The notes under the pieces: model-generated
Databases searched by the model: none
What the model was told of the DNA's origin: nothing
Seen by the model: only the letters and a program-made list of their open reading frames with translations
In this document: positions 19,745-30,343 of the stretch, piece after piece
Layout of the letters: each line of letters begins with the position of its first letter
Numbering within the stretch: position 1 is the stretch's first letter
Source: an uncultured archaeon
GTDB taxonomy: Archaea > Asgardarchaeota > Thorarchaeia > Thorarchaeales > Thorarchaeaceae
Direction: 5' to 3'
Length of the DNA: 64,000 bases
Assembly: GCA_964558645.1 (NCBI GenBank)
Contig: CAZLEV010000005.1
Location: forward strand, 1-64,000
Program-made: the position numbers and the translations under genes

Positions 19745-20926
19745 ATGGCACGTGAGGACAAGAGAGTAAGAAATGCTCTTGTCAAGGCATTCTCGGACCC
19801 ATCAGAGACAATACGAGAGAGAGCACTGCTTGCGGCCGCAGACATGAATGACCCTAATATAGTCGACGAGGTGGTCAAATCCCTTGATGATGACGAGGTA
19901 GATGTACGGATAGCAGCTGCTCAGACGCTGGCGTGGTATCATCAGCCCAAAACAATCCCGGACCTTCTCAAAGGACTCAAAGACGGAAACACTTGGGTCC
20001 GCTCTCATTGTGCCGCTGGGCTATCCAAGCTCGTAAGTGGCCCAATATGGGCGCGACTTCCGGAAGAGGACATCGAAACAATCATGGCCGACTTCCCGGA
20101 AATGGTAGACGACGAGATTCGTACGTACCTTCTCTCGTTGAAAGTTCGACCCAAGGCCATAGATCAATACATGAGGTGGAGAAAGGAAGAATTCGACATC
20201 GAAGTTGATGTTGAAGAGTTCATTGAGGATATGGAAACTCCAATCATCCTAGAAGAGAAGAAAGATGCGCTTGAACCACCATCTCCAAAGAAGGGGCCCT
20301 CACTTGATCCTGAAGTAGAAGAGATCCTCTCTGAACTGCCAAACGACACGAGAGAAGCTCTCCCGATAGAAGACATCCGACGGCTCACGGCAAAGACTGC
20401 GAGAGAGCTGGTAGACTCTCTACAAGAGCCATCAGATGAGAAGGCGAAAAAGAAGCCAGCGAAAAAGAAAGTTAAGGTTCGCAAGGTCAAGAGGGTCAAG
20501 CGTGTTAGAAAAGGCCCCACTCGAAAGCAACTACTTGCAAAGATACCGAAGGAAGTTCTCGATTCTGTGCCCGAAGAGACTCTGAATGATTTAAGCATCG
20601 AGGAACTAGAAGCTTTGGTAGGCTCTGCTGAAGATGCAGAAGACCAAGATGAGAAAGACAAGTTGATTTCTGAACTGCCAGATGATGTCAGAGAGTCGAT
20701 GACGGATGCGGCAATAGCTAAGCTGACTAGGGACGAACTTCAGGAACTAGTAAAGTCGAGCAAGGAAGAAGAGAGCGACGAACTGGTTCAGAAATACGGG
20801 AGGAAAAAGGCAAGACTCCTCAGAAGCATACCAGAAGATGTGCTCGCAGGCATTCCTGAGGATCAGATAAGAGAAATGGACGAGGAAAGCCTCAAAGGGC
20901 TCGCTGACGCCATGAGTCATGAATGA
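19745..20926 (+). CDS. HEAT-repeat protein with Lys-rich linker and four C-terminal ~30-aa helical repeats
   Basis: HEAT units 'DPSETIRERA', 'DDEVDVRIAAA', 'DGNTWVRSHCA'; start set at ATG 19745 (the ORF extends to 19643). Confidence 0.8.
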   Translation: MAREDKRVRNALVKAFSDPSETIRERALLAAADMNDPNIVDEVVKSLDDDEVDVRIAAAQTLAWYHQPKTIPDLLKGLKDGNTWVRSHCAAGLSKLVSGPIWARLPEEDIETIMADFPEMVDDEIRTYLLSLKVRPKAIDQYMRWRKEEFDIEVDVEEFIEDMETPIILEEKKDALEPPSPKKGPSLDPEVEEILSELPNDTREALPIEDIRRLTAKTARELVDSLQEPSDEKAKKKPAKKKVKVRKVKRVKRVRKGPTRKQLLAKIPKEVLDSVPEETLNDLSIEELEALVGSAEDAEDQDEKDKLISELPDDVRESMTDAAIAKLTRDELQELVKSSKEEESDELVQKYGRKKARLLRSIPEDVLAGIPEDQIREMDEESLKGLADAMSHE

Positions 20927-20927
20927 C

Positions 20928-28027: not shown

Positions 28028-29177
28028 GTGTCATCATATGAATAATGTCATCAACCACGGCTAACATGTCAGCTGTGCTAGACATCATGAATGCTCTTCC
28101 CCCTCCAGCTTCTGAGATTGCCTTTAGCATAGTTTCATCAGATGCAGACTCAAGCCCGAGTGAAAATGTGATGGTTTCTTCAGGCAGTTGACGCATCACA
28201 GAAACAGGGTTCTGCCCTATTGAGTACCGACCTGTTGAGAGCAGCACTATACAAACGGGTGATATCCCCTCATCTCTCATCTCATCTATGACAGAAAAAC
28301 CTGCCTCCAACGCCAGTCCTGGATCAGAAGGCTGTGCGTCATGAATGTCTTTCTGGCCTGCAAACCAGTTCTGCACTGCCTCAAGATAACCTTGCGAGTC
28401 AATCTCCGACCAGTTTCGTTTCTGTCCAGAATGCGGCCCGTATGTCGGGAAGATATCTGTCTGAGAGGAATATGCAATCACTGACACCACGACGTCGGTT
28501 GAATTTGATGAAGAGAATGCTTTCAGACCTCTAAGAAGACGTATTGAAATCTCAGAGAACGGAGTGGAAGCGGTAACACCAGACTGCCGAGCACCACCCT
28601 CATTCTGGAAACCACTGATGCGCGACATCTCGACCAGAATCACAAATGCGCTCGAACTGGGAATCTCGCCTCCAACTAGCTCGATCTGCTCCAGGCGAGG
28701 CCATCTGATTCTTCCAATCGTGCCGCTTGAATCCGACAGAGAGAGGCCCAAGACTGTGAGACGAAGATTGAGTGACTCCAGATTGAGTTGTTGACCTTCT
28801 GTGACTATGAGGCCATCAAGATGTGGGCGGAAGTCTCGGATTCGTTCGGAGATTGCCTCTGTGACCCTGTGGCTGCCGATTCCAGCAAGTGAGTGAACCT
28901 CAATGGTGAGTGTCTTACACACCGATGGATCTATGCTCTCTGGGGTGACCTCGACTCCGTCTTCGCCCGAACATAAGAGGCTGTCATATAATTTAGAGTC
29001 AATCACGATATGTCCTGCGGGTACAGCCTCAGCCGTTCTGATGTCGCTATAGACGGTGCGTCCTTGAGATGAGATACTGGCGACCTTATCATCTGACAGC
29101 CAGTCCTCCGGTCTGACAAATGATATACCTCTTTGGTCTCTCCCGCGGATAGCCTGCATCTCCAAGTCTCCCACCAT
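28005..29177 (-). CDS. Third Cdc48-N-like plus degenerate vWA protein
   Basis: 'VPAGHIVIDSKLYDSL', 'LDGLIVTEGQ'; vWA-like 'FVILVEMS', 'SDPGLAL', 'LLSTG', 'LKAISEAGGGRAF'. Confidence 0.65.
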   Translation of the reverse strand: MVGDLEMQAIRGRDQRGISFVRPEDWLSDDKVASISSQGRTVYSDIRTAEAVPAGHIVIDSKLYDSLLCSGEDGVEVTPESIDPSVCKTLTIEVHSLAGIGSHRVTEAISERIRDFRPHLDGLIVTEGQQLNLESLNLRLTVLGLSLSDSSGTIGRIRWPRLEQIELVGGEIPSSSAFVILVEMSRISGFQNEGGARQSGVTASTPFSEISIRLLRGLKAFSSSNSTDVVVSVIAYSSQTDIFPTYGPHSGQKRNWSEIDSQGYLEAVQNWFAGQKDIHDAQPSDPGLALEAGFSVIDEMRDEGISPVCIVLLSTGRYSIGQNPVSVMRQLPEETITFSLGLESASDETMLKAISEAGGGRAFMMSSTADMLAVVDDIIHMMTREVVADG

Positions 29178-30343
29178 CAGTAAATCTTTACAGGATATGT
29201 TGCTGTTTCTATTGACCTAGAACCATAAAGGACTTCAACACGGATTGTCGCCTTTCCAGGGATGTCCACCATGGGGGTCAAACGCAGCTTGAGAATCCGA
29301 TCGCTTCGCGGTGCAATGTCATGGCTCTCATTTGTAACCTCGGAAACGCCTTCGGAGGTGACCAGAGATATGATTATCCGTATCCCCACGGTGGTCCTGC
29401 TAGGATTCTTCGCACGGACCTCATAATTGAAGGCCCTTCCTGGAAGAATGGCCGAAGGCATATCTCCAAGGTCCACCTCAACTCCAAGGCGATCATGGCT
29501 CAAAGGACGACCTCGTGGCCACCGTGAGATTTTACCTAGTTCCAGCAGACGCGACAATGAGGTCTTCATCTCTCTCAGTTCCATTCCGAGTTGAGCGGCC
29601 GCGTCACCGATATCAAAGGAACCATCATTAGCTCGGTAGATGCCAAGTACTCGTCTATCGCTCTCGATAAGATCACTCACCCCCTCAAGAATCTCAAGGA
29701 TGGCTGCGGGCAGCTGATGAGCCTCCACCAGAGAGTAGTATTTCCCGCCTTCAATGGCTTCTGCTATAGATCTGAATGACTCCTCAACCAACGGATTGCA
29801 TCCACAGGCAAACAGGAAGAAACTTGTTCCATGCTCTCGTTTCATCTTCCTGACCTCGTCCCTCGGATCCAAGCCTTCGGGACAACCATCCGGCCAATGG
29901 TCGTCCCCCAAGCTGTTGTAGTTTCTTCCGTGAGGAGGAGCATCACCGACCAGGAGCAAGATTTTGTATGCTTCACGCGTCCAGCTCAGCTCTCTTCTCG
30001 CATCGGCAAGCCCATCAGCAACAGCTTCAGGAGTATCGCCACCCTCGGACGGATTCAGTCGGCCAATTCGACGGTGAATGTCCTTCACATTGTCAGTGAA
30101 ATCGAAGACATCAGTCACATAGGTTCTATCCTCAGGAGGATGATCCCTGTACGATACTATAGCAAAGCGAATCTCCAGTTCTGAAGTCTTCTTCACGATA
30201 TCATCGACGATGTCGAACAGACTGTCGCGCACTGCGTTGATGTCGTCTTTCATGGACCCGGTCGTGTCAACAACAAATGCAACCTCTAGACGTGTTAGTG
30301 GCAGCCTCGAATCACTCCTACTAGTATACTCCATGAGCAGCAA
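29177..30343 (-). CDS. vWA (VwkA/hemicentin-like subtype) plus winged-helix plus Ig-like domain protein
   Basis: 'FVVDTTGSM', 'YRDH', 'GGDTPEAV', 'VGDAPPH'; wHTH 'IGDAAAQLGMELREMKTSLSRLLELGKI'; C-terminal beta-sandwich. Confidence 0.85.
   Translation of the reverse strand: MLLMEYTSRSDSRLPLTRLEVAFVVDTTGSMKDDINAVRDSLFDIVDDIVKKTSELEIRFAIVSYRDHPPEDRTYVTDVFDFTDNVKDIHRRIGRLNPSEGGDTPEAVADGLADARRELSWTREAYKILLLVGDAPPHGRNYNSLGDDHWPDGCPEGLDPRDEVRKMKREHGTSFFLFACGCNPLVEESFRSIAEAIEGGKYYSLVEAHQLPAAILEILEGVSDLIESDRRVLGIYRANDGSFDIGDAAAQLGMELREMKTSLSRLLELGKISRWPRGRPLSHDRLGVEVDLGDMPSAILPGRAFNYEVRAKNPSRTTVGIRIIISLVTSEGVSEVTNESHDIAPRSDRILKLRLTPMVDIPGKATIRVEVLYGSRSIETATYPVKIY

Follow-up and report, generated by a model that had tools for sequence, protein, structure and literature searches.

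The window studied here is the 64,000-nucleotide stretch formed by positions 1 to 64,000 of contig CAZLEV010000005.1 (assembly GCA_964558645.1), which belongs to the 3.63 Mb genome of an uncultured archaeon of the Thorarchaeaceae. It carries a compact group of genes, lettered A to H along the window, and a separate ligase gene at 13055-16483 (Table 1). We read this locus as the Thorarchaeota elaboration of a three-part module found across Asgard archaea. Its parts are a GCS2/YbdK-type ligase, an Amidohydro_2 metal hydrolase (C) and one or more proteins (B) in which a Cdc48-type N domain, with no ATPase attached, is followed by a vWA domain with a metal ion-dependent adhesion site (MIDAS); together they would write and erase an amide modification. 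The probability that we assign to this reading as a whole, about 0.5, blends two unequal parts. That the module exists, with ligase, C and B as its members, is very probable; that it works by writing and erasing an amide mark, with vWA proteins as docking subunits, is a tentative proposal. D, H and, in some genera, G, F and E are Thorarchaeota additions to the core.

An initial annotation of the window had described eight tightly packed open reading frames between 19745 and 30343 as a candidate undescribed system. All eight lie where they had been placed, and all domain calls hold when examined by Pfam, hhalign and AlphaFold2 (AF2) models. There are four vWA domains, with MIDAS intact in B (DTSGS) and H (DTTGS) and replaced in D and G; three true Cdc48-N folds without ATPase; two amidohydrolase domains, one with intact ligands (C) and one without the HxH motif (D); a HEAT protein (A); and two coiled-coil proteins (E and F). 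The boundaries of the unit had been drawn too narrowly, as the core partner ligase lies outside them and was missed. The proposal that these genes encode one assembly stands in part: a conserved set of predicted active proteins and pseudo-paralogs is present, but E, F and G occur only in some genera and A is a bystander. The composition had been called undescribed, and full-text literature searches (GCS2 with vWA and amidohydrolase; DEPDC5/Iml1 in archaea; Asgard vWA proteins) likewise returned no description of the module.

Co-inheritance and co-loss in Asgard archaea

Phyletic profiles of B, ligase and C were obtained by searching one and the same set of 151 Asgard genomes. All three were found in 61 genomes, none in 82 and some of them in the remaining 8, counts which are to be taken as descriptive. 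Families with matches are identical for the three proteins (f1, f2, f6, f7, f9, f19, f22 and f27; prefixes f, G, L and P mark our working numbers for families, genomes, loci and proteins). The same search found none of the three in any of the 13 genomes of f5 or the 19 genomes of f12.

Ligase, C and B are adjacent or lie in one operon in at least six families. Direct adjacency was seen in f6 (L035), f7 (L030, L032), f19 (L029) and f22 (L036), where the ligase homologs beside C-B are 980-1190 amino acids (aa) long; the order C-then-B is retained in f6, f7 and f19. Moreover, f7 and f19 hold two paralogous sets, with B next to the ligase in each. A contig of Heimdallarchaeaceae bears a co-directional operon composed of GCS2 (a short ligase), a B-like gene, a 241-aa gene, Amidohydro_2 and more B-like genes. 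In all, this locus (L039, 3215-18909) has a single GCS2 ligase gene and a single Amidohydro_2 gene, surrounded by five Cdc48N-vWA paralogs. In Helarchaeota, the order is B-like gene, 389-aa gene, GCS2, Amidohydro_2. Co-location in related genomes, on which the initial annotation had made its proposal depend, is therefore upheld by the synteny survey, for C-B even in distant Asgard families. Within Thorarchaeota, 12 related genomes share not only the sequence of genes A, B, C, D, H but also the flanking genes; E, F and G vary between genera.

Four Thorarchaeota genomes that are 97-99% complete have no B (G013, G059, G012 and G006). In two of these, G013 and G059 (98-99% complete), the genes for W_11861, DUF92, a 246-aa protein, Rce1, A, a cyclophilin-like protein, E2F/DP and a cobW-like protein follow each other in this order. 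Relative to DUF92, the ligase is missing on one flank and B, C, D and H are missing on the opposite one. Since ligase, B, C and H are lost together from two separate positions, they are likely to depend on each other functionally. A and D alone are retained in G012; in G006 they are accompanied by a 708-aa ligase-like gene that has diverged. In all four genomes, none of which has B, C or H, gene A is kept between Rce1 and the cyclophilin-like gene. Because it persists without ligase, B, C and H, the HEAT gene, which had been counted among the members, is a neighbour and no dependent component.

We also searched the whole 3.63 Mb genome with a profile of the B family. Only three genes were found, B, D and G, and since all of them sit in this one locus, their clustering goes beyond chance. 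In an exhaustive HMMER search (E < 1e-10), the N-plus-vWA layout was present in full in 84 cluster representatives. All named B-family members that were looked up are Asgard (Thor, Hermod, Hel, Heimdallarchaeaceae and Asgardarchaeia/Odin-labelled), and D-like proteins are among the named Jord/Freyarchaeia members. The module is restricted to Asgard archaea and is gained, kept, duplicated and lost as a unit.

Core proteins and their inactive copies

The N-terminal ~480 aa of the ligase align with the YbdK/GCS2 family (PF04107; 1r8g, 1tt4). With the N-domain profile, three blocks align to E. coli YbdK (1r8g; 1.1e-14), and in them the GIExE, HxH and E.R..D motifs of both proteins coincide; residues E19, E21, H169, H171, E284, R286 and D289 are invariant. 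The ligase alone stays below the threshold of PF04107 (E 0.007, 16.2 against a cut-off of 21); its orthologs do carry this domain. Judged by sequence, it is probably an active ATP-dependent carboxylate-amine ligase. It differs from YbdK in length (1142 aa against ~370 aa), owing to a long C-terminal extension that is present in Thorarchaeota, f6, f7, f19 and f22, and also in its company, as its partners are always an Amidohydro_2 enzyme and Cdc48N-vWA proteins. BLAST found no relation between the C-terminal repeats of the ligase and the C-terminal domain of H (E 17).

C matches Amidohydro_2 (PF04909) at 6e-8, with 33.3 bits against a cut-off of 26.4. Its metal ligands D40, H42, H44, H195, H259 and D317 (HxH/H/H/D) are invariant in 16 orthologs, and the protein is probably an active metal hydrolase. 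It has the TIM-barrel fold and the HxH/H/H/D ligands in common with Amidohydro_2 enzymes such as the COG3618 lactonase 4dlf, LigI-like 4i6k and ACMSD-type proteins, from which it differs by an extra C-terminal domain of ~150 aa. A further difference is D, a ligand-less copy fused to Cdc48N-vWA, and we know of no Amidohydro_2 family member that works with vWA proteins.

According to hhalign and model domains, D is made up of two complete proteins, one C-like and one B-like, fused to each other. Its AF2 model (pLDDT 85, pTM 0.70) contains an amidohydrolase barrel at residues 15-316 (Z 16.5), a Cdc48-N domain at 469-638 (Z 14.1 to CDC48A) and a vWA domain at 637-873 (Z 17.6); nearest solved folds in the comparison of this model are COG3618 and LigI-type enzymes. 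The Pfam match of D to Amidohydro_2 is weak (0.04). Because the fold is kept but the HxH motif is lost, the amidohydrolase part of D is a pseudo-enzyme. The fusion is old, since D-like proteins of ~850-900 aa occur in f1, f7, f19 and Jord/Freyarchaeia. In f19 (Jord/Freyarchaeia), the D-like gene is situated between a Band_7/SPFH gene and a zf-AN1 + Peptidase_M50-like gene (L028 5350-10311, L044 8787-13725), and the Band_7 neighbour recurs in f7.

B was modelled by AF2 on 50 family members (pLDDT 90.6). In the model, a two-lobed N domain precedes a classical vWA domain (204-452) that resembles ITIH1 (Z 22.6) as well as TFIIH p44 and BatB (Z 21-22). By Foldseek, the p97 N domain alone fits at TMt 0.71, the B-family N-domain profile matches Cdc48 at E 1.3e-6, and comparison of models assigns the double-psi beta-barrel plus beta-clam fold to the N domains of both B and D. 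In Pfam, B matches VWA_2 at 3e-8 and CDC48_N at 1e-3 (19.6 bits, below the gathering cut-off of 35.1), the CDC48_N model has no match in D or G, and the VWA match of G is weak (0.03). Relationship among the three proteins is nevertheless evident from hhalign, which aligns D 472-863 to B 28-431 (E 8e-40) and G 6-382 to B 30-445 (E 2.7e-26, probability 99.7). G carries the vWA and Cdc48-N folds by this full-length homology to B. The fold of the N domain is thus common to B, D and the Cdc48/p97/VAT/NSF group (and Ufd1); but in B and D it is followed by vWA and not by AAA+ rings, and the Pfam scan of B, D and G detected no AAA family in place of D1/D2.

MIDAS residues D216, S218, S220, T342 and D372 of B are invariant or nearly so across 50 B-family sequences, and the positions aligned to them by hhalign are substituted in D and G. 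No protein of the set is conserved better than B, which is 74-84% identical across Thorarchaeota genera. Searches of the ESM Atlas with B, by features and by shape, returned vWA clusters and B's own cluster only.

H matches VWA_4 at 9e-14 and is 58-66% identical across Thorarchaeota and 45% in a second family. Two proteins, P0151 and P0411, are B-like proteins fused to an H-like vWA domain (32% identity over 275 aa, E 1e-32); in other longer B-like proteins, Pfam detects vWA only. Following the fusion argument (D combines C and B, P0151/P0411 combine B and H), C, B and H are likely to be in mutual contact. P0411 (L043 439-2529) is a 696-aa Cdc48N-vWA + VWA_4 protein, and its 9.6-kb contig has no ligase or hydrolase.

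Gene layout, accessory genes and neighbours

Coordinates of the genes are listed in Table 1. The overlaps reported by the initial annotation, TGATG between H and G and TTGA between F and E, were both found by reading the sequence directly, and AGGAGG precedes the latter. AT-rich stretches in the spacer between C and D, such as gcatatatcgg, are candidate archaeal TATA boxes. An NCBIfam search gave no informative match. Searches of single B, C and H proteins against PDB sequences yielded nothing useful either, and profiles were required.

Table 1. Genes of the locus, the ligase gene and the C/D spacer in the window (positions are those of the 64,000-nucleotide stretch)
Feature	Position	Strand	Description	Remarks
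ligase	13055-16483	+	GCS2/YbdK-type carboxylate-amine ligase (N-terminal ~480 aa, by sequence), long C-terminal extension	core
A	19643/19745-20926	+	HEAT-repeat protein, acidic/basic repeat tail	Pfam HEAT_2 2e-13
B	20928-22286	-	Cdc48-type N domain (~27-200) and classical vWA with intact MIDAS (204-452); 452 aa	core
C	22290-23819	-	Amidohydro_2 metal hydrolase (predicted), intact ligands, and C-terminal domain	core; directly upstream of B
spacer	23820-23922	.	103-bp divergent intergenic region	between C-B and D
D	23923-26553	+	amidohydrolase barrel without HxH, middle domain, Cdc48-N domain, vWA without MIDAS	
E	26535-26816	-	93-aa coiled-coil protein	Pfam matches are coiled-coil families only
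F	26813-28027	-	~300 aa of no assigned fold and C-terminal coiled coil	accessory
G	28005-29177	-	full-length B paralog (Cdc48-N and vWA) without MIDAS	accessory; Thorarchaeota only
H	29177-30343	-	VWA_4-type vWA, MIDAS DTTGS intact, and ~170-aa unassigned C-terminal region	

Accessory genes differ in their distribution. Among 12 related loci, F is present in six, G was detected by tblastn in four, and E was detected by the same method only in a genome of the same genus (L025). Coiled-coil partners recur outside Thorarchaeota, as the Heimdallarchaeaceae locus L039 encodes a 646-aa long coiled-coil protein; a 241-aa helical protein is encoded there as well. Pfam and PDB sequence matches of F, those of a profile search against PDB included, are confined to its coiled coil, and residues 1-300 had no usable match in the ESM Atlas. 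The Pfam model Robl_LC7 matches at 14 sites in the genome, none of them at F. Comparison of the F family with the genome's Roadblock domains by hhalign gave a probability of 0.2%, with two of the 12 Roadblock rows being in a wrong frame.

The HEAT repeats of A are followed by a stretch rich in lysine and by some four acidic segments that resemble one another, each ~27 aa long (type IPEDV...IPE...L..EEL..LV). A was not found in the distant module loci examined.

A 246-aa gene (17861-18601, + strand) was considered as a fourth component of the module and rejected: its product is a membrane protein of hydrophobic character, whereas the 245-389-aa proteins encoded beside the ligase in other lineages are soluble. 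The protein, found also in L018 (1489-3034), has no Pfam match, and its gene is tandemly duplicated in G021.

Further genes of the window lie around the locus. At 30791-31342 (- strand), a 183-aa protein with an E2F/DP winged helix (Pfam E2F_TDP 3.7e-10) is encoded beside the locus in all Thorarchaeota genomes examined, including those without the module. A 448-aa protein with weak match to CobW/HypB/UreG GTPases (6e-6), encoded at 31622-32968 (+ strand), is unusually conserved, with 80-87% identity across genera. Two tandem paralogs at 9734-11791 (+ strand) are ~40% identical to each other and are conserved across genera at 91-93% and 79-87%.

Proposed function and its alternatives

In the amide-mark mechanism that we propose, protein or peptide carboxylates would be the sites at which the ligase makes an amide linkage. 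Hydrolysis of this linkage, or of a related one, would fall to C, which, to judge from the D fusion, would be held on B. An acidic ligand would be docked by B and H by means of MIDAS and the N-domain groove, and D and G would act as non-catalytic scaffold or regulatory subunits of a hetero-oligomer. By analogy only, this resembles pupylation (PafA, Dop, Mpa), which also employs an ATP-dependent carboxylate-amine ligase, an opposing hydrolase and a recognition protein; both ligases belong to the glutamine-synthetase/GCS-like superfamily. The module differs from pupylation in that its ligase is YbdK-like, its hydrolase is an unrelated TIM barrel, its reader would be a vWA protein and the loci examined hold no AAA+ unfoldase. 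No Pup-like gene turned up, though a tag gene was not searched for systematically. A docking role for MIDAS vWA domains has its parallel in vWA-MoxR pairs (CbbQO, NorQD, RavA-ViaA, Mg-chelatase), where such a domain is the docking subunit of an enzyme, and the vWA domain of NorD is among the structural matches of D. In contrast to these pairs, there is no MoxR/AAA+ gene in the module loci examined and the vWA domain is fused to Cdc48-N.

Several observations weigh against the amide-modification module as we describe it. Its basis is genes and predicted structures, and no candidate tag protein or substrate turned up, in an analysis that included no systematic tag-gene search. Among Amidohydro_2 enzymes that have been characterised, decarboxylases, lactonases and hydratases prevail over amidases, so that C may not reverse the ligase reaction. 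Synteny within Thorarchaeota is weak evidence, because the flanking genes are equally kept; it is the comparison with distant families that is informative. Phyletic counts carry no statistical test, since the genomes are related and therefore non-independent. Finally, a distance of 10-57 kb often separates B from the ligase-C pair in f9, and some B paralogs stand alone.

The nature of known Amidohydro_2 enzymes makes a small-molecule pathway a serious rival, albeit one that we regard as unlikely. Here the ligase would make a gamma-glutamyl-type amide on a metabolite, C would hydrolyse, decarboxylate or delactonise a downstream intermediate, and the vWA proteins would only assemble or regulate the enzymes; ligation-deprotection routes of comparable kind are PuuA/PuuD and EgtA/EgtC. 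YbdK/GCS2 relatives use small substrates, Amidohydro_2 neighbours in fold space are small-molecule enzymes, and ligase and C form the tightest pair in f9, all of which would suit such a route. However, a metabolic pathway would not usually come with one to five Cdc48N-vWA paralogs, fusions of dead enzymes and coiled-coil partners, the most conserved protein of the set is B, and neither a transporter nor a further pathway enzyme recurs in the module loci examined. The view of the initial annotation, that the proteins are adaptors or substrate receptors in protein remodelling by an AAA+ ATPase (Cdc48 or MoxR) encoded elsewhere, did not fare well, and we give it little credence. It is true that vWA-MIDAS proteins serve as adaptors of MoxR-type ATPases, that Cdc48-N domains bind cofactors and that the genome has two canonical Cdc48 genes. 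These genes are nonetheless on other contigs, and no AAA+ gene was found next to the locus in the window or in the module loci L028-L041 examined across families. Cdc48 occurs with or without the module, so nothing ties the two together, and a Cdc48-N domain normally acts in cis with its own ATPase rings. Protein recognition or de-modification, which the initial annotation had also suggested, may still be right. As for unrelated genes standing side by side through general Thorarchaeota synteny, the equally syntenic DUF92, Rce1, cyclophilin-like, E2F/DP and cobW-like flanks within the family would fit, and for A this explanation holds. For ligase, B, C, D and H it is contradicted, as ligase, C and B are linked where flanks differ, their phyletic profiles match, two separate segments were lost together and the fusions D and P0151 exist; as an account of the whole locus it is very improbable.

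A different alternative arises from structural comparison. Foldseek top matches of B are chains of DEPDC5/Iml1 and of the yeast SEA complex (9o5e_H at 7.6e-13; also 9o5a_B, 9v0j_C, 9xzy and 8ae6_W), the top match of D is 9xzy (1.9e-10; DEPDC5/SEA-complex chains), and p97 N-D1 ranks lower for both. The whole B-family profile matches DEPDC5 residues 37-124 at 5e-5. DEPDC5/Iml1 (Sea1) of GATOR1/SEACIT has the same order as B, a Cdc48/NSF-type N domain followed by a vWA/Sec23-trunk-type domain, with no ATPase; its N-terminal domain (NTD) has been likened to the N domain of Sec18/NSF and its SABA domain to Sec23 (PMC8534245). Judging from the model, B shares this two-domain NTD-SABA architecture, a likeness of fold which is not proof of common descent. 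If B, D and G were archaeal counterparts, possibly ancestors, of NTD-SABA, they could be the scaffold of a complex for nutrient sensing, with amino-acid-like ligands bound by the ligase and by the live and dead hydrolases. NPRL2-like proteins have been reported from most Thorarchaeota genomes, and no DEPDC5 counterpart along with them (bioRxiv 10.1101/2020.10.19.343400), which would be compatible with such a scaffold. On the other hand, the Pfam IML1 model (PF12257), run on the whole genome at E up to 10, has no match at B, D or G, and the N domain alone is nearer to Cdc48 than to DEPDC5 (1.3e-6 against 1.6e-5 with the B-family profile). B ends after its vWA domain, which is of the classical type with intact MIDAS, and SHEN, DEP and C-terminal domains are absent. 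Its genomic partners are a ligase and a hydrolase and not longin proteins, and the module loci examined have no recurring longin, Roadblock or Rag gene. We therefore consider a DEPDC5-like signalling scaffold to be improbable. The same degree of doubt applies to descent of B/D/G and DEPDC5/Iml1 NTD-SABA from one ancestor, in which case GATOR1-type nutrient signalling would have had an archaeal forerunner in the module, whose live and dead enzymes would serve to sense ligands.

Were that descent true, a missing GATOR1 subunit would be added to the Asgard repertoire, for which NPRL2-like longin proteins and Rag-type GTPases have already been reported; the match of B to the front half of DEPDC5 makes it a concrete candidate for the origin of a GATOR1 subunit.

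Returning to the ligase-hydrolase-vWA module, what this locus newly contributes is the evidence of co-loss, the removal of the HEAT gene from the set, the fusion of B with H and the presence of all three genomic N-vWA genes in one place. Asgard archaea are the closest archaeal relatives of eukaryotes. If the module does write and erase an amide mark, it would represent a new prokaryotic protein-modification system, with a ligase whose fold is related to the Pup ligase and with a Cdc48-N/vWA protein as its reader.

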